This document shows positions 57,220 through 63,927 of a stretch of DNA of 64,000 nt, one piece after another. The notes under the pieces are model-generated. The model had not been told where the DNA came from. It saw only the letters and a program-made list of their open reading frames with translations, and made no database searches. Numbering within the stretch: the first letter of the stretch is position 1; each line of letters opens with the position of its first letter. The position numbers and the translations under genes are program-made. The DNA is from a virus, in IMG/VR virus record IMGVR_UViG_3300008110_000009. One strand, 5' to 3'.

Positions 57220-57544
57220 GAAAGACAAATTTAATGTTCACGTAAAAGGAAAGTACAAAAATTTTGAAGATTTTTTGGATAGAAACAAAGACCTCATTTA
57301 TGGAGGTGTCATTGATTCTTTTAAAGAACTTCTCGGGTCCAGAAAAAGAAAAATTAAGTACACCGTAAATGCAACAGTAAAGCTTGACACCAATGAGATT
57401 GTAGAATGGAAAACAGAATTTTTATTGGTTAAGAATGAACCAGATATTCTGGTAGAACACATTATGCCTCATTTTGAGGAACAAGAAGATTATGAAAAAT
57501 GTTCTGAAATATTAAATTTACACAAAGAGTTGACAAATAAATAA
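57206..57544 (+). CDS. Hypothetical protein (C-terminal 'EDYEKC' UVR-like helix)
   Basis: ORF track. Confidence 0.55.
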   Translation: MMKTEKDKFNVHVKGKYKNFEDFLDRNKDLIYGGVIDSFKELLGSRKRKIKYTVNATVKLDTNEIVEWKTEFLLVKNEPDILVEHIMPHFEEQEDYEKCSEILNLHKELTNK

Positions 57545-57564
57545 AAATATGGTATATTAGTTTA

Positions 57565-57637
57565 TAAGCGTATAATAGAGGTACGTTTAGTCATTTCTTG
57601 CCAAAGAAAGCCCCCATTTCTACGGGGGTTTTCATTT
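57565..57637 (+). ncRNA. Candidate small RNA 2
   Basis: TTGACA-N17-TATATT promoter at 57530-57558, followed by three consecutive hairpins ending in a terminator. Confidence 0.45.
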
Positions 57638-59089
57638 TTATAACATTAATCTAGATCCAACTAAAAAATTGTGCATAATTGGTGTGCCAGGAGCCGTATT
57701 TAAATTTGCTTTATAATTTAAACTCAAACCAAACCTTCTAGTTATTTTATAATCAAAACTACTACCTAGTAAAAAACCAAAATGTCTATTTACAGTTGTT
57801 TGCCCCGTTACTGTATTATATGATATTGGTGAAGACATCATAAACACTTGTGGCGATACCGTTATTTTTTTATTATATTGATATGGTTTTGTCCAAAAAA
57901 CAACCATTGAGGATGATAAAGACATATCATACTTTTTTTCTATATTTTTTGTGAATAAAGAAATCAAACCAACATTATAACCATACGTTCCTCTTTTTAT
58001 ATGTGGTTTAATCCAAGTATACCCCATTAAATTCATCAATGTACCATTTAAATACGCAAACGTTGATGAATAGCTATTAATTGCACTCAGTTTACCATTT
58101 TTAAAATCCATTTTTGTCATTCCACCCGAAAGAGCAAATTGATTTAAAGAAGACCATATCATTGCATTAGCACTATAAGTTTTATCCCCCATCAGAGACG
58201 ATTTACTCAACCCCAAAGATAAAATAACATCAAATTTTCCATCTATATTTTGTGCACTTGTTAGATCGGAGGCTAATAATAGTGGATTCATATTTTGTTG
58301 TTTCTTTTTTTCTTCTTTTTTCTCTTCTTTTTTTTCTTCTTTAGAATCCTCTTTTTTCTCTTCTTTCTTTTCTTCTGACTTAGATTCCTCTTTCTTTTCT
58401 TCACTTTTGCTTTCTGATTTTGATTCTTCTTTAGATTCGGATTTACTTTCTGACTTTGTTTCTGACTTAGATTCACTTTTTTGTTCGGATGACGATGAAC
58501 CACCACCACTCTTATTATCAGATGATGAAGATGAAGAAGAAGAACCGCTTGAAGACGAAGATGAACCACTTGCACCCGAAGAAGATGTTGACGCAGACGC
58601 ACCACTACTTGCCGCAGAGCTACCAGCAGAGCTCGCCGAAGACGATGCAGCAGATGAAGCCGAAGACGATGCAGCAGATGAAGCCGAAGAGCTTGCGGCC
58701 GCTGAAGCTGATGAACTAGCGGCAGAATTAGCGGCTTGAGATGCCGCTTGTGATGCGGCCTGAGATGCTGCTTGTGAAGCCGCTTGACTAACAGCTTGTG
58801 TTACTGTCTGTTGAACAACAACATTTGTTGGGCATGCCCTTGAGCTATACGCCGCATATGTTGCTTGTAGCCAAACCTGCATTGCCCCACCCTGAACTTC
58901 AATTGCTGTAAATGTTCTAATTTGGTCATAAAAAGAAACAACAGCATTTCCATTTACATATGTTGTTGTTGCTACTTTTATTTCACCAGTACATTTATCA
59001 ACAAATGTTTGTGTAAATGTTTGAGCATTAATCTTACTAGAACATAAGATTATAAAAAATATGAAATAAATAAATTTATTTTTTTTCAA
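57638..59089 (-). CDS. Secreted protein: signal peptide, Ser/Ala-rich and Glu/Lys-rich linker, C-terminal outer-membrane beta-barrel
   Basis: Signal ending INA-Q; SQAA/SSSA repeats; about 220 aa of alternating amphipathic strands at the C-terminus. Confidence 0.7.
   Translation of the reverse strand: MKKNKFIYFIFFIILCSSKINAQTFTQTFVDKCTGEIKVATTTYVNGNAVVSFYDQIRTFTAIEVQGGAMQVWLQATYAAYSSRACPTNVVVQQTVTQAVSQAASQAASQAASQAASQAANSAASSSASAAASSSASSAASSSASSAASSSASSAGSSAASSGASASTSSSGASGSSSSSSGSSSSSSSSDNKSGGGSSSSEQKSESKSETKSESKSESKEESKSESKSEEKKEESKSEEKKEEKKEDSKEEKKEEKKEEKKKQQNMNPLLLASDLTSAQNIDGKFDVILSLGLSKSSLMGDKTYSANAMIWSSLNQFALSGGMTKMDFKNGKLSAINSYSSTFAYLNGTLMNLMGYTWIKPHIKRGTYGYNVGLISLFTKNIEKKYDMSLSSSMVVFWTKPYQYNKKITVSPQVFMMSSPISYNTVTGQTTVNRHFGFLLGSSFDYKITRRFGLSLNYKANLNTAPGTPIMHNFLVGSRLML
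58635..58690. repeat. Perfect 24-nt tandem repeat (2.3 copies) in Ser/Ala linker
   Basis: Unit GCCGAAGACGATGCAGCAGATGAA. Confidence 0.85.
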
Positions 59090-59093
59090 TTAC

Positions 59094-59918
59094 TTAAAAG
59101 TTAAGACCTAATCCAAATGTTCCGTTTCTTTGAACTGGATCATAATCAAATTTTATTGTTGCATTTTTTAAATCGTGCAACGCGCCTATTTTTACAGTTG
59201 TGAAACGATCGCTGTATTTTGGGAATGTAATGTACCCAATATCATCTTTACCTCTATATTTAACAAACTCATTTGCTGTCCCTAACATAAAATGAACACC
59301 GGTTCTTTTTATTCTTTTACCAACCCCAATATAAAAAGAACTTAGTTTAACATAATCATTAACAAGTGGAAAATCAACTTGTGTTATTGTACCATAAGGG
59401 AAAAATGTTGAATTGTCTCTCTCATATGTTGTATTAAATTCAGTAATAAAGTAACCCTTATTTCCAATGGTGAAAAAACCGCCAATTTGTTTATCTGTTG
59501 TTTTTTGTAAACCAAAACTTATAATAGGTTTTTTTCCTCTTATTGTATCCCTTTTACCATCACCGTAAACGTAAACTCTAGCTGGTTGTCTATACCCCCA
59601 ATCATTCCAGTACCACATAGGAGAATAAAAATTCCATCCAAATGCTGGCGCCCCCCATAAGTCCCACCTATTCCACCCCCATCCAAATCTAGGGCCATAA
59701 AGCCAAGGATCGCGCACAATAATGTTAGAGCCTGGCTTCGTTGTTTGTGGTCTATTAAATTCTTTAGGATTAGTATTTCTCCACATACTAATATCGCTTC
59801 TTTGCCCCTGAATTGATGGTGTACTAGGAACTCTTGATGGCGAATTAGATCTCCATGAACTTGTTTGGCCAAAAATTAAAGCTGGTAATAAAATCAGTAC
59901 GAATAATATCTTTTTCAT
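59094..59918 (-). CDS. Predicted outer-membrane beta-barrel protein with Trp/Gly/Pro-rich N-terminal region
   Basis: Signal peptide; C-terminal 'GTFGLGLNF' BAM-type terminal Phe. Confidence 0.7.
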   Translation of the reverse strand: MKKILFVLILLPALIFGQTSSWRSNSPSRVPSTPSIQGQRSDISMWRNTNPKEFNRPQTTKPGSNIIVRDPWLYGPRFGWGWNRWDLWGAPAFGWNFYSPMWYWNDWGYRQPARVYVYGDGKRDTIRGKKPIISFGLQKTTDKQIGGFFTIGNKGYFITEFNTTYERDNSTFFPYGTITQVDFPLVNDYVKLSSFYIGVGKRIKRTGVHFMLGTANEFVKYRGKDDIGYITFPKYSDRFTTVKIGALHDLKNATIKFDYDPVQRNGTFGLGLNF

Positions 59919-59948
59919 AACTCTAATATTTTATATTATATAAATATC

Positions 59949-59976
59949 AAAAAAGGGGAGTCTTAGACCCCCCTTT
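59949..59976 (-). terminator. Intrinsic terminator after CsgG-like gene
   Basis: AAAGGGGG-TCTAAGAC-TCCCC-TTTTTT on the minus strand. Confidence 0.7.
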
Positions 59977-60001
59977 ATTATATATCTTTAATATTGATAT
60001 T

Positions 60002-60721
60002 TTATTTTGTAAAAATCCCCTTTTTAATCATTCTATCAAGAATGTTAGCACAAGCAATATCTAGCGCCTTTTTGGTTGCAATTGAAATTGTTGATTGATT
60101 AAACTTTATAGGATCAACCGTTGCGTCTGATAACAAAGTAAGTTCACGGCTTGTTTTAGCTTCACCCAATCCAGATGCCCCAAACATGGCACCAGTTTCA
60201 GCATCTGTAAATCTTACTTGAAGTCCTATACGTGTAACCATATTATCTTTAATACCGTCCTTAAGATTGATTGTTTCATCTTCTGATATTGAATAATCAT
60301 AACATTCAATAGTCACAAAATATTTTGCTAATCTGATCTTACCTCTACCGTCTAGTTTATCTTCTGAAATACCAGCCTGAGACGCTTGGAATTGTTTAAC
60401 CATCCTATTTTTAATTTCTGTTTTATCTTCGGTAAAAATAAAACGATTAAGATTTTCCAAATATTCCATAGAAATATTTGCAACCCCTAGACCAACTCTT
60501 TTTTCTTTCAATTCTGGGTACATTTCATATACCTCATCGGATATGCCCGCTTTTAATATTTGAATTGGGATTTGCGGGCCATCATAATCCATAAATGCAG
60601 AAATATCTTTTTTCTTTTCAAATTCTGCTTTATATTCTTCTGTTTTAGTTTTACCAATTGTTTGTGCTTGTAAAGTTATACCAATTAGCATAACGCTTAG
60701 AAATAGAAATATTTTTTTCAT
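60002..60721 (-). CDS. CsgG/HfaB-like (curli-channel family) secreted protein
   Basis: Signal peptide (LQA-Q); 'GVANI..EYL....RF...E', 'AKYFV...YD' and 'LQVRFTDAETG....SG.GEA' CsgG-family pattern. Confidence 0.65.
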   Translation of the reverse strand: MKKIFLFLSVMLIGITLQAQTIGKTKTEEYKAEFEKKKDISAFMDYDGPQIPIQILKAGISDEVYEMYPELKEKRVGLGVANISMEYLENLNRFIFTEDKTEIKNRMVKQFQASQAGISEDKLDGRGKIRLAKYFVTIECYDYSISEDETINLKDGIKDNMVTRIGLQVRFTDAETGAMFGASGLGEAKTSRELTLLSDATVDPIKFNQSTISIATKKALDIACANILDRMIKKGIFTK

Positions 60722-60772
60722 GTTAGTTGTTTTAAAATAAATATAAATGGGGAATGTTAACTCCCCCATTTT

Positions 60773-60991
60773 TTACTTATCATACCAAATGTTTTCTGGA
60801 TTATTTTTAAAGGTGCCATCAACTTTCCAAGATATTTCATTAGAAATTTTTGTCATTTTATCCTCCTGATCTGTTGCCACCAAAAATACCGCATATAATT
60901 GGAAAGCAAGTGCAAACATAATCCACGTACCAGTTAAGATTAAAAATGTATTTACCACCACATTTTTAGTTCTTGCCATTAAATTTTTCAT
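60773..60991 (-). CDS. Small membrane protein
   Basis: One long hydrophobic segment. Confidence 0.55.
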   Translation of the reverse strand: MKNLMARTKNVVVNTFLILTGTWIMFALAFQLYAVFLVATDQEDKMTKISNEISWKVDGTFKNNPENIWYDK

Positions 60992-61012
60992 CTTTAATAT
61001 GTGTTAGAGTTT

Positions 61013-61273
61013 TTATCCCTCCATTTCTTCTTCTTTTTTAGCATTCTTGTTGTTGATCCACTTATCTACGGATGCAATACCGAACGCTCCAAGAGTGATG
61101 ACTAAAAAGCCATCAAAAATGAATTCGTTTATTACTAATGGTTTACCCATATAGCCTGTTACTAAATCAACAACTAGCGCAATTACCATACATACAAAAG
61201 ATGCAAAGCCAACTACAGATTTTTCGTTAATAGAGTTGTTGTCATTAAATAATTCCTTTAAGAAACTTGCCAT
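61013..61273 (-). CDS. Two-TM holin-like membrane protein
   Basis: Two TM segments and a charged C-terminal tail; 86 aa. Confidence 0.55.
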   Translation of the reverse strand: MASFLKELFNDNNSINEKSVVGFASFVCMVIALVVDLVTGYMGKPLVINEFIFDGFLVITLGAFGIASVDKWINNKNAKKEEEMEG

Positions 61274-61300
61274 GTTTTTTAATTTTTCTGCGTTTATTTA

Positions 61301-61954
61301 TTAACCCTCATCCTCGCCAAGATCTGGGTCTTTTATTTTACCACATTTAAGGCATTCTAAATCACCATCACCATCCGCATCGCCCCATACGTGCTCACAT
61401 TGTCTATGTGCAAAGTACATGTCTATTTTACCATCCCCATCAAAATCAACACCATCCATCACACCATCACCATCTTCATCTACCTCAACACCAGTTCTAG
61501 GACTAGATGCTTCTTTTCCTATTGGTGGAACTTCGGAACTAATCGGTACCTGTTCAAACATATCATTTACCTTAGGCTCGTTTTTCATGTTTTCAACTGC
61601 TTTAGCAAATGCTTCAGGGATAATAGGGGTTGGGGGTTGGTTATTTACAGGCATATCAGCTGTGTTACTTAAAGAAACACCATCTTCTTCATCCATCTTT
61701 TGAACCAACATTTTATCCTTATCAGTATCACTAAACCAATAGTCGATAATCTTACCATAAGAACCGATAAAGGCACCTAATAATAAAAGGAGAAGTTCTT
61801 TCCATTCCCCACTAATTGCGGTTTGACCAATAATAGCACCAAATATGCCCATTATAATGATCATAAATCCGCCCAATACAATCGCAGTGATGAACCACCT
61901 ACGTTTCATCATACTACCTAATAATTCTCTAAATCCGCTTGGTTTTTGTTCCAT
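61301..61954 (-). CDS. Two-TM membrane protein with DxDGDG Ca-binding motifs and a C/H zinc site
   Basis: DEDGDG, DFDGDG, DADGDG; CEH...CLKC. Confidence 0.65.
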   Translation of the reverse strand: MEQKPSGFRELLGSMMKRRWFITAIVLGGFMIIIMGIFGAIIGQTAISGEWKELLLLLLGAFIGSYGKIIDYWFSDTDKDKMLVQKMDEEDGVSLSNTADMPVNNQPPTPIIPEAFAKAVENMKNEPKVNDMFEQVPISSEVPPIGKEASSPRTGVEVDEDGDGVMDGVDFDGDGKIDMYFAHRQCEHVWGDADGDGDLECLKCGKIKDPDLGEDEG

Positions 61955-61960
61955 ATATTA

Positions 61961-62284
61961 TTACCATTTTGGTGCTTCTTCCTTAAACTCATCCCCTTCC
62001 TTTTTCTTATGTTTTGGTTGAGCTGCTGGTGAAGTTGGTTTTTCTACCACTCTTTCTTTGATTATGGTTGTATTACCGCCTGCGGCTTGTTGTTGTTGGT
62101 TTGAATTGGTAATATTGATTACTGGTGCTGGTGCGGCTGCTGGTGCGGCTTCTTTATCACCACCACCCATTAATGTTGTTAACCACACACCACCTGCGGT
62201 TACCACAGTACCTGCCACGCCTACAATTGTTTTTTTAAGACTTGACCAAGTACCTTCATTTGTGTTTTCTACTTCTTCTGACAT
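61961..62284 (-). CDS. Single-TM protein with Ala/Pro/Gln-rich tail
   Basis: ORF track; TM around residues 19-38. Confidence 0.6.
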   Translation of the reverse strand: MSEEVENTNEGTWSSLKKTIVGVAGTVVTAGGVWLTTLMGGGDKEAAPAAAPAPVINITNSNQQQQAAGGNTTIIKERVVEKPTSPAAQPKHKKKEGDEFKEEAPKW

Positions 62285-62305
62285 AAAATTTAAATTTAAT
62301 TTGTT

Positions 62306-62674
62306 TTATAGTTTATTAAAATCTGCGATCCCTAGCATCTTATCATTCGAATCAAAAAGTCCGATTCTATATGCCGATCTAGGTAAGGCCGTTGTATATA
62401 CTTTCAAAATATTATCACCAGCTTTAACGGTGGTAACCTCTTTTGAAACTACTTTATTTCCAATATCAAGTATTTTTATTGTAACGCTTCCACTATATTC
62501 TGTTTTAACATTCATGGCAACCTCAGTTGTTACAAAAGAAGATTCAAGCTTTATGCCTGCAGAATTAGCAATTTTTAGATCTGGTTTAACAGATACTTCA
62601 GGAATTAATAAGTCGTCTTTATGACAACCGGCAAATAATAGAGTTATTGCCGTTAAGATTAATAGTTTTTTCAT
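62306..62674 (-). CDS. Lipoprotein with T9SS-CTD-like Ig domain
   Basis: Lipobox FAGC followed by HKDD; 'TIKILDIGNKVVSK...GDN.LKV.T.ALP...Y'. Confidence 0.65.
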   Translation of the reverse strand: MKKLLILTAITLLFAGCHKDDLLIPEVSVKPDLKIANSAGIKLESSFVTTEVAMNVKTEYSGSVTIKILDIGNKVVSKEVTTVKAGDNILKVYTTALPRSAYRIGLFDSNDKMLGIADFNKL

Positions 62675-63030
62675 TTCGCGATAATAGTTGTTTTATTCAT
62701 TTCTTTTTTATTGCCGTCTTCTAATACTAAATATAAATACTTGGATGGAAGTGATTTTGTATATATTTTAATTTTATTTGCCCCAATTATGCCTTTTATT
62801 TTTTCCTTACTTAAGACCTGGCCACTTGACTTATCCACTATTTTTAGAACGTAAACGCTGTCTGAGGTTAATTTAAACATCACCTCTTCCCCGTCAGTTA
62901 TTGATGATTCAGATGTTAAAAATATGTCAGTTAAAGGCTTTGGCTGTGGTGGGATAGGTTCTATATCCATTTTTGTACACCCAATTGTAGCCAAAATACA
63001 ACACAGTACTATTATTTTAAACTTTTTCAT
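62671..63030 (-). CDS. Lipoprotein, paralog of 62306..62674
   Basis: Lipobox TIGC; 'LKIVD..SGQVLSKE....G.NKIKIYTKSLP'. Confidence 0.65.
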   Translation of the reverse strand: MKKFKIIVLCCILATIGCTKMDIEPIPPQPKPLTDIFLTSESSITDGEEVMFKLTSDSVYVLKIVDKSSGQVLSKEKIKGIIGANKIKIYTKSLPSKYLYLVLEDGNKKEMNKTTIIAK

Positions 63031-63033
63031 ATA

Positions 63034-63927
63034 TTAAAATTGAAAATTTGTCCCTACCATAAACATTATTGGATTTTCTTTTTTATAACCTACCGATTCA
63101 ACTAAGGAATCCCAAGTTGTATTGTATCTTATGTTGGTATTCAACACAAATCTTTTAGTTATTTTCCAATCTAAAGATGTTCCATAATAAAGATCCATAT
63201 TAAAATTTTTCACATACCCAAAATTATAATCAATCCCTTCTTTATATTTTTTATAAGCGTCACCCATAGCAAATATTTGTGGAGAAATATTGACCACTTT
63301 TGTTTTTATGGTATAAGTGTACATTAACATCCCCCTCAAGGTAAGTTCGTTTGATGAGGGTATTGTTGGATATATTAAATCTAAAAAATTACCGTTTTCA
63401 TCAACAGTATATTCACCTTCCCACTCGCCTTGATAGGAATCCCAAAATGTTTTAGATACAATAAGGCTATAACCAAATGTCCCCCACTTTTTTGTTCGGT
63501 GAACATCTATTAGTGAAATATTAATATCTTTTTGGAAGTTAAAATCAGTTGAGTAAAATGTTTGTAACGTAGTGGTCCTCTTTTCTGTATTTCTTGACAA
63601 ACCGTAACCCATACCATAGTATTTCCAAGTAGGATTAATTGACACAGCAAAAGAGTGTCCCCATTTACCATTTAAAGACAGTTTACTATACCCTAAATTT
63701 AATGTAGTGGAAACTTGTCTACCAATTATACCAACCGATAAGTTTGATGATGATAATATATCTTTTGAAAAATCAATATAAGATTCTAAAATACCCAAAT
63801 CGTTCCAATCATCAGTTTCTTCAAACAACTCTCTGTTTGTTAATTCCAATGTGTCAGGTGTTGATATTTGTGCAGTTGAAACAAAACTGATACAAAGTAG
63901 CGATAATATGATTATTAGTTTTTTCAC
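63034..63927 (-). CDS. Predicted outer-membrane beta-barrel, paralog of the C-terminal domain of 57638..59089
   Basis: Signal STA-Q; shared SPQ.F and 'G.S.D.KIT.RF.L..N' motifs; terminal Phe. Confidence 0.7.
   Translation of the reverse strand: MKKLIIILSLLCISFVSTAQISTPDTLELTNRELFEETDDWNDLGILESYIDFSKDILSSSNLSVGIIGRQVSTTLNLGYSKLSLNGKWGHSFAVSINPTWKYYGMGYGLSRNTEKRTTTLQTFYSTDFNFQKDINISLIDVHRTKKWGTFGYSLIVSKTFWDSYQGEWEGEYTVDENGNFLDLIYPTIPSSNELTLRGMLMYTYTIKTKVVNISPQIFAMGDAYKKYKEGIDYNFGYVKNFNMDLYYGTSLDWKITKRFVLNTNIRYNTTWDSLVESVGYKKENPIMFMVGTNFQF

Follow-up and report, generated by a model that had tools for sequence, protein, structure and literature searches.

Introduction

Proteins with a fold of the CsgG class work together with beta-barrels in several bacterial envelope systems: CsgG forms a barrel of its own, PelC rings PelB and LptE plugs LptD, and a lipobox carries CsgG, PelC and LptE to the outer membrane. 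Genes of this class are also found in phages. Pelagimyophages of the HTVC008M group and the Methylophilales phage Melnitz carry CsgG and CsgF genes without curlin subunits, to which no function has been assigned (PMC7029224, PMC9004378). We describe here a cluster of ten genes at positions 57638-63927 of a 64,000-nucleotide stretch of virus DNA (IMG/VR record IMGVR_UViG_3300008110_000009; the whole stretch is called the window in the following), which encodes a CsgG-like protein, g8, together with predicted beta-barrels, lipoproteins and small membrane proteins. In our proposal, the ten genes make up the downstream two-thirds of a conserved module by which the phage puts proteins of its own making into the envelope of a Bacteroidota host. 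The products would build an outer-membrane and surface assembly, installed by the phage, with which the envelope of the infected cell is re-dressed. We put the probability of this reading at about 0.5.

The module is real and widespread, and it shares the theme of a phage CsgG with the published clusters, but not their parts. Like those of the pelagimyophages and Melnitz, it contains a CsgG-type gene in a variable region of a large aquatic myophage and lacks curlin subunits. However, their genes encode recognisable proteobacterial-type CsgG and CsgF, while here CsgF is absent, barrels, a stalk protein, lipoproteins and lectins are found, and the hosts are Bacteroidota. A tblastn search with g8 against 50,697 phage records matched immuto phages alone; there is therefore no detectable sequence link to the CsgG of pelagimyophages or Melnitz. 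A preliminary description of this DNA, drawn from the sequence, had considered the cluster a candidate for an undescribed system. This is only partly so: phage CsgG/CsgF clusters have been published (PMC7029224, PMC9004378), but a literature search for the Bacteroidota-phage module itself found no report.

Results

The cluster consists of ten consecutive head-to-tail open reading frames (ORFs) on the minus strand, named g1 to g10 in the direction of transcription. Sec-type signals are present in g1, g8, g9 and g10 and lipoboxes in g2 and g3; one or two hydrophobic segments are found in each of g4 to g7. ORFs and N-termini hence agree with the preliminary description, in which ten co-oriented genes, each with a signal peptide, lipobox or transmembrane segment, had been noticed, among them four small membrane proteins (g4 to g7, all with transmembrane segments). 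The genes are as follows (lengths in amino acids, aa).

63034-63927, minus strand: g1, 297 aa; signal peptide and predicted outer-membrane beta-barrel with C-terminal Phe; paralogue of the g10 barrel; accessory gene
62671-63030, minus strand: g2, 119 aa; lipoprotein with lipobox IGC; small beta-rich domain; fast-evolving
62306-62674, minus strand: g3, 122 aa; lipoprotein with lipobox AGC followed by HKDD; paralogue of g2
61961-62284, minus strand: g4, 107 aa; bitopic inner-membrane protein; core gene
61301-61954, minus strand: g5, 217 aa; inner-membrane protein; two hydrophobic segments; core gene
61013-61273, minus strand: g6, 86 aa; small membrane protein; two hydrophobic segments, charged C-terminus
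60773-60991, minus strand: g7, 72 aa; small membrane protein
60002-60721, minus strand: g8, 239 aa; CsgG-fold protein without lipidation; core gene with the highest conservation
59094-59918, minus strand: g9, 274 aa; exported orphan protein with a P/Q/W/G-rich N-terminal half and a beta-rich C-terminal half; fast-evolving
57638-59089, minus strand: g10, 483 aa; signal peptide, N-terminal domain, disordered stalk and predicted 12-strand barrel; core gene

The probable start of g8 is the ATG at 60721 and not 60769, up to which the ORF is open. g8 itself has no match in Pfam (E<=1), PHROG or NCBIfam, and PDB sequence searches with g8 and with its family profile gave nothing useful. The family is large: public metagenomes contain more than 6,000 close relatives, with 220 representatives at 50% identity. 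Its more distant members lead to CsgG: 18 of 35 diverse full-length distant homologues match PF03783 (CsgG; best 1.9e-17), and six of the 35 match LpoB. The g8 family profile aligns with E. coli CsgG over the full length (hhalign, 95% probability, E 2e-8). With an AlphaFold2 model of g8 (predicted local distance difference test, pLDDT, 83), Foldseek ranks CsgG on top (4UV3/4UV2, E 7e-9). VIA-align superimposes g8 and CsgG at Z 12-13.5 with a root mean square deviation of 3.4-3.8 over 184-194 residues, and the next group, which comprises CT253, PelC, LptE, FlgT and HpaA, follows about 3 Z units below. The nearest named cluster in the ESM Atlas is CsgG as well (TM score 0.63). Because relatives, profiles and structure comparison agree, the fold and the distant homology are established: g8 is a distant CsgG homologue with the CsgG fold. 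The earlier assignment to the CsgG family can be kept in the sense of remote homology and fold, but not in that of a direct match to the families in Pfam, PHROG or NCBIfam.

Compared with CsgG (PF03783; 4UV3, 4UV2, 6L7A), g8 has the same fold nearly throughout and is likewise exported to the envelope, and the conserved YPEL loop of its family aligns with the CsgG constriction loop. The differences are considerable, however. Identity is only about 10%, a direct Pfam match is missing, the Sec signal comes without a lipobox, and the two hairpins that correspond to the barrel-forming ones of CsgG are both shorter and polar. CsgE, CsgF, CsgA and CsgB are absent, and modules of the g8 type bring a short paralogue, beta-barrels and lectins instead. 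In a family scan, none of the ten proteins matched CsgA, CsgB, CsgE or CsgF at E<=1, which bears out what had been said of the cluster before, and none of these was seen in the modules of relatives.

For conservation, 80 IMG/VR loci were fetched, and presence was counted in those 40 that have full flanks. All 40 contain g4 and g8, 37 contain g10 and 36 contain g5; g2/g3 are found in 34, g1 in 24, g9 in 20, and g6 and g7 in 18. Thus, g4, g5, g8 and g10 form an invariant core, and g1, g2, g3, g6, g7 and g9 are exchangeable accessories. Among relatives g8 is 79-95% identical (80 loci), g2 about 45% and g9 about 39%; low identity of g9 and g2 is expected because they would be exposed parts. A block with the same gene order recurs in more than 80 viral contigs and in the Flavobacterium phage immuto, where the trio of g4, CsgG-like gene and g10-like gene corresponds to gp16-18: gp16 is the g4 homologue, gp18 the g10 homologue, and the g8 counterpart is 52% identical. 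Immuto belongs to the sole cultured phage group with a match in the 50,697 records. A further immuto protein, gp14, was considered as a relative of g8 and rejected, since the likeness is that of the signal peptide alone. The trio is also present in the marine contig L005 and the diverged contig L006, and diverged copies have 35-68% identity. The synteny comparison that had been suggested to check the cluster hence shows co-conservation of the core genes in many independent viral contigs. Among genome contigs, close copies occur in six contigs of metagenome-assembled genomes (MAGs), three of them binned as Bacteroidota, and in no cultured bacterial genome; the cluster is neither an ordinary host operon nor a chimeric assembly. 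The module contigs L091, L095 and L096 sit in bins named Thiobacillus, Micavibrio and Sphingomonadaceae; these are probably mis-binned phage contigs.

Elsewhere in the window a tail sheath, a major head protein, a portal, a DNA polymerase and a helicase are encoded. The DNA is therefore that of a myophage, and the cluster is phage-encoded, as had been claimed. Freshwater metagenome contigs of 227-268 kb have the identical gene order with the same flanking genes for an RNA ligase, an AAA kinase, a Clp-type ATPase and an Hsp20 protein. Such genomes have been placed in a clade of freshwater Bacteroidota phages that encode bS21, in a study which does not mention the cluster (PMC9723584). The window, too, is that of a large freshwater phage in this clade, which infects Flavobacterium-type bacteria.

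The second element of the proposed assembly are the barrels. The structure model of g10, which was built on 38 sequences, has an N-terminal domain (residues 23-82, about 70 aa) of disulfide type with two conserved Cys, followed by a disordered stalk of about 180 aa (87-266). The stalk is made of Ala/Ser, poly-Ser, KSE and KEE repeats and varies in length among relatives. A nearly invariant junction, NPxLxASDL, leads to residues 270-481, which are modelled as twelve long strands (pLDDT 75-88). Foldseek finds NanC, TamA, FapF and autotransporter beta-domains for this part (E ~1e-4 to 1e-3); in VIA, CymA, PelB (Z 14.4), OmpG and FhaC are among the matches at Z 13.8-15.2, and the strong fold matches (overall Z 11-15) are all outer-membrane barrels. 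According to the model, the C-terminus of g10 is a 12-strand outer-membrane barrel. The g1 protein corresponds to this entire barrel (BLASTP E 1e-5; hhalign 96.6%, E 6e-10, 204 columns) and has the motifs SPQxF, GxSxDxKITxRFxLxxN and F[LM]VG in common with it, so that the paralogy of the barrel at 63034 with the C-terminus of the protein at 57638, noticed earlier by the motifs, is confirmed. The 872 homologues of g1 are all viral-type. A function of g1 as PorP/SprF or as type B C-terminal domain (CTD) adaptor for upstream cargo was considered and dropped, as NCBIfam gave no match. Searches for stand-alone or re-used copies of the g10 N-domain returned only contig-end fragments of the g10 family. 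The CsgG fold and two outer-membrane barrels are confirmed.

A third barrel, which had been proposed for 59094-59918, is not confirmed. g9 has no Pfam, PHROG or PDB match in sequence and profile searches, and profile comparison links it neither to the g10 barrel nor to its paralogue. The terminal Phe is not conserved, since many homologues have GLNNK at the end instead, and the many invariant polar residues are unusual for a barrel. A weak lead from a language model alone links g9 to outer-membrane protein barrel families.

In its order of signal peptide, N-terminal exported part, linker and 12-strand C-terminal barrel, g10 resembles type Va autotransporters, and the beta-domains of Hbp, EspP and BrkA as well as FapF are among its fold matches. 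However, a domain of 70 aa on a disordered stalk of 180 aa takes the place of the beta-helix as its "passenger". g10 does not match the autotransporter beta-domain PF03797 in Pfam, and NanC, TamA, CymA and OmpG fit as well as or better than the autotransporter beta-domains 3AEH, 8QN4 and 3QQ2. A likeness to the pairs PelC-PelB and LptE-LptD is also apparent: the Z scores are 9-10 for g8 against PelC and LptE and 14.4 for g10 against the PelB barrel, and the gene for a protein of the CsgG class adjoins that for a barrel, the two being co-conserved. Unlike in these systems, g8 is not lipidated, it matches them less well than CsgG, and a cargo of exopolysaccharide or lipopolysaccharide is not indicated. 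A complex prediction for three copies of g8 with the g10 N-domain scored 0.01 (mark 0.32), which speaks neither for nor against an association; the g10 barrel would be a more suitable candidate partner than the N-domain.

The module extends beyond the window, whose last 73 bases hold just the end of an unrelated small ORF. In relatives it starts upstream with a protein of about 180 aa, followed by two secreted proteins of about 550 and about 765 aa, both with signal peptides and the latter with lectin C and cohesin signals; the possible continuation of the cluster past the right edge is thus confirmed in relatives. The profile of the ~180-aa family matches short CsgG-like forms, including immuto gp19 and bacterial proteins (95%, E 2e-8), and the short-form family matches the g8 family in turn (99.6%, E 9e-25). 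Judged by these profiles, the ~180-aa upstream protein is a short CsgG-like paralogue. In immuto the neighbours of the trio are a lectin protein and a cohesin with a sorting domain of type A for the type IX secretion system (T9SS), gp15.

Two-paralogue sets are found in cells as well. The cellular proteins closest to g8, with about 30-35% identity, are encoded beside a short paralogue, and one such pair is followed by a DUF3187 barrel. These pairs resemble the relatives' phage modules in having both paralogues, but the long bacterial forms mostly have a lipobox, and no stalk protein or lectins were seen with them. Pairs of short (about 175 aa) and long (about 230 aa) CsgG-like genes are located at L088:3-1296, L089:5474-6684 and L090:1-2732. 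Some long cellular forms are fused to the caspase domain Peptidase_C14 (P0225, P0236, P0260).

The lipoproteins g2 and g3 are paralogous (E 8e-6), as had been noticed before. Among 23 homologues, 11 match DUF3244 and 11 match Por_Secre_tail, the T9SS sorting domain, all below threshold (best 0.0014). The threshold of the T9SS type A sorting domain (PF18962/TIGR04183) is not reached, and hhalign against the true CTD of immuto gp15 gives a non-significant 15% probability. The CTD-like domain is the entire mature lipoprotein and not a tail on a cargo. Because the matches are sub-threshold and the comparison with a true CTD is not significant, a CTD- or Ig-like identity of g2 and g3 is a lead only. 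Proteins of the g3 type carry Lys-Asp-Asp after the lipid Cys, which we take to resemble the surface-export signal of Bacteroidota.

Of the inner-membrane proteins, g4 is conserved in its N-terminus and transmembrane segment and has a low-complexity tail. g5 contains an invariant stretch of 42 residues that comprises the second hydrophobic segment and an acidic/basic juxtamembrane stretch, DxDGDG loops and a conserved motif H-x2-C-x-H...C-x2-C; relatives are otherwise 55-77% identical. Invariant stretch and motif suggest a specific, perhaps cytoplasmic, binding partner. A role of g5 as dockerin for the cohesin proteins, for which the DxDGDG loops could speak, was rejected: two lineages are without the loops, and a cytoplasmic domain is suggested by the His/Cys motif next to them.

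Transcription signals divide the cluster. The following features were identified.

60745-60771, minus strand: GC-rich terminator-like hairpin that separates g7 from g8, then TATTTAT at 60737-60743
59952-59976, minus strand: GC-rich terminator-like hairpin with T-run past g8, followed by TATTTAT at 59940-59946 before g9
57606-57633, two-way: hairpin terminator between the end of the cluster and the convergent plus-strand genes

Since hairpins with T-runs flank g8, it is its own unit, and the ten genes make up at least three transcription units here. The two minus-strand TATTTAT sites had been described as a late motif. Both sites are present, and in the 45 nt upstream of starts there are 20 copies of the motif on the strand of the gene against 3 on the opposite one, including sites at the tail sheath and portal genes. 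This strong strand bias just upstream of starts makes a promoter reading reasonable. However, across the window the motif is not enriched (43 found against 48 expected). Ahead of g9 it is kept in 25/43 relatives.

Discussion

How might the parts work together? We propose that g8 assembles into a ring on the periplasmic side of the outer membrane, perhaps with the short paralogue as a second component, and that the ring would partner the barrels in the way that PelC partners PelB and LptE partners LptD, or as CsgG does with its own barrel. Ring and barrels would then be a platform that inserts, exports or anchors the surface parts of the phage, namely the stalked g10, the lipoproteins and a lectin/cohesin scaffold, and the infected cell would have its surface re-dressed at a late stage. 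A likely pay-off would be that other phages or the own progeny are kept off the cell, or that cells stick together. The platform is favoured because the CsgG-class fold works with barrels and because g8 and a barrel protein are co-encoded wherever the module occurs. The envelope theme is continued by the signal-peptide lectin C/cohesin genes, the T9SS-domain cohesin, the short CsgG-like paralogue and the insertions of envelope genes in relatives.

Several observations weigh against this proposal. The signal peptide of g8 ends in ...LQAQT with no Cys, so a lipobox is absent; the close phage relatives, such as the copy in L023, likewise have none, and distant cellular relatives mostly carry GC. 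In the hhalign alignment with CsgG, the TM1-equivalent hairpin of g8 is 5 residues shorter and charged, reading SEDETINLKDGIKDN, and the TM2-equivalent is shorter, too. This is a family trait: compared with curli CsgG, the hairpins of all 35 members are more polar and shorter by about 5-8 residues. Because of these short and polar hairpins, a membrane-spanning pore made by g8 is doubtful, and together with the missing lipid anchor they make a true secretion pore less likely. The pairing of ring and barrel is suggested by fold likeness and conserved adjacency. The Cys/His motif of g5, which suggests a cytoplasmic domain, is left unexplained by pure surface display. Lectin and cohesin genes would lie outside the window in this genome, their presence being extrapolated from relatives. 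Finally, TATTTAT is kept upstream of the CsgG-like gene in 25/81 relatives only, and late expression is suggested by the motif that g8 and g9 share with the sheath and portal genes.

One alternative is a channel of the type VIII kind, in which g8, alone or with the short paralogue, spans the outer membrane and exports an unfolded phage polypeptide for a fibre or coat; candidate cargo would be the P/Q/W/G-rich half of g9 or the low-complexity g10 stalk. CsgG is indeed the best fold and profile match over the full length including the hairpin regions, the YPEL loop aligns with the constriction loop of CsgG, and g9 and g10 downstream carry long low-complexity exported segments. We nevertheless regard such a channel as unlikely, given that g8 is without a lipobox, that throughout the family the TM2-like hairpin is shorter and the TM1-like one is both charged and shortened by about 5 residues, and that homologues of CsgE/F/A/B are missing and no amyloid-type repeats were seen. 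A different function would be superinfection exclusion by blocking, with CTD-like lipoproteins and envelope proteins that jam or mask receptors such as the T9SS or gliding adhesins and need no export of their own. Dependence on surface proteins of gliding or the T9SS is frequent among Flavobacterium phages. The repeated weak Por_Secre_tail and DUF3244 matches in g2/g3, the Lys-Asp-Asp stretch after the lipid Cys of g3 and the fast evolution of g2, g3 and g9 fit this idea, but the CTD matches are all sub-threshold with 15% in the comparison with a true CTD, and the conserved core of g4, g5, g8 and g10 has no obvious blocking role. In addition, exclusion genes are usually early, while the motif found here is that of structural genes; on balance blocking seems improbable.

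Export of a glycan, with a PelC/PelB-like ring and barrel as exit and lectins that hold a phage-made polymer on the cell, would make use of the matches of PelC to g8 (Z 10) and of PelB to g10 (Z 14.4). It would also give a role to the lectin genes in the relatives' modules, to the glycosyltransferase and LpxH-type enzyme inserted in some lineages and to the polysaccharide genes that are reported as numerous in the bS21-phage clade (PMC9723584). However, g8 fits CsgG better (Z 13.5) than PelC, the barrel matches are generic, and Wza, PelB-TPR or polymerase genes were not seen in the module, so that we consider this explanation very unlikely. Lysis or egress would assign the small membrane proteins to holins and the barrel and membrane proteins to spanin-like links, either as a lysis device or as a lysis timer. 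For the CsgG/CsgF genes of phage Melnitz a role of this kind has been proposed, speculatively (PMC9004378). The holin-like layout of g6 with two hydrophobic segments and a charged tail, the type II membrane protein g4, which is i-spanin-like, and the late-type motif TATTTAT are compatible with it, but lectins, lipoproteins and two barrels would be unneeded. Furthermore, no lysin family was found among the ten proteins (Pfam, PHROG), no endolysin lies in or beside the module, and all three related near-complete genomes have an Amidase_2 gene 80-200 kb away from it. In these three genomes Glucosaminidase, SLT and Peptidase_M15_4 gave no matches and Phage_lysozyme matched once, inside a 486-aa ORF. 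A neighbourhood of the amidase was read in one genome only, G003 (~279-281 kb; L098:115-2964), and looks like a probable lysis cassette far from the module: the Amidase_2 protein of 201 aa is accompanied by a 236-aa multi-transmembrane protein with a coiled-coil tail, by transmembrane/coiled-coil proteins of 95 and 116 aa and by a 141-aa protein that has a signal peptide and, at its C-terminus, a transmembrane segment (spanin-like layouts). The separate amidase and its own membrane-protein neighbours in L098 weaken the lysis role, and with it the egress function that the preliminary description had listed; of the explanations considered, we give it very little weight.

Within the proposed surface assembly, a more specific version can be formulated. 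A hetero-oligomeric ring of long and short CsgG-like proteins might dock on 12-strand barrels dedicated to it and thread or anchor low-complexity phage polypeptides, in unfolded form, and a lectin/cohesin scaffold on the Bacteroidota surface. We offer this tentatively, as a rather unlikely special case. If it were true, the cellular pairs of short and long CsgG-like genes, which are equally unexplained, would be an unrecognised bacterial secretion or anchoring system. More generally, the module sits in one of the commonest groups of large freshwater phages, and 6-12 kb spent on exported proteins would be an alteration of the host surface at a rarely documented scale. The role of the assembly bears on the competition among phages of Bacteroidota, on the contacts of infected cells with particles and other cells and on CsgG-fold proteins outside curli. 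A cultured model is available with phage immuto on Flavobacterium sp. LMO8.

Some minor observations concern the surroundings of the core genes. In L050:3469-6920 and L085:8013-11683 a TonB-dependent-receptor-like protein (Plug and OMP_b-brl_3, 750-825 aa) and a 400-aa lipoprotein are inserted, either past the CsgG-like gene or between it and the membrane proteins. The same site is occupied by a class 3 lipase in L011:6248-6991, by a family 2 glycosyltransferase and an LpxH-type metallophosphoesterase in L061:5481-6937 and by a secreted non-specific endonuclease in L054:9515-10150. At the other end of the cluster, the plus strand of the window carries a near-consensus sigma-70-like box, TTGACA-17-TATATT, within 57530-57637, which is directed at the two-way terminator that closes the cluster.

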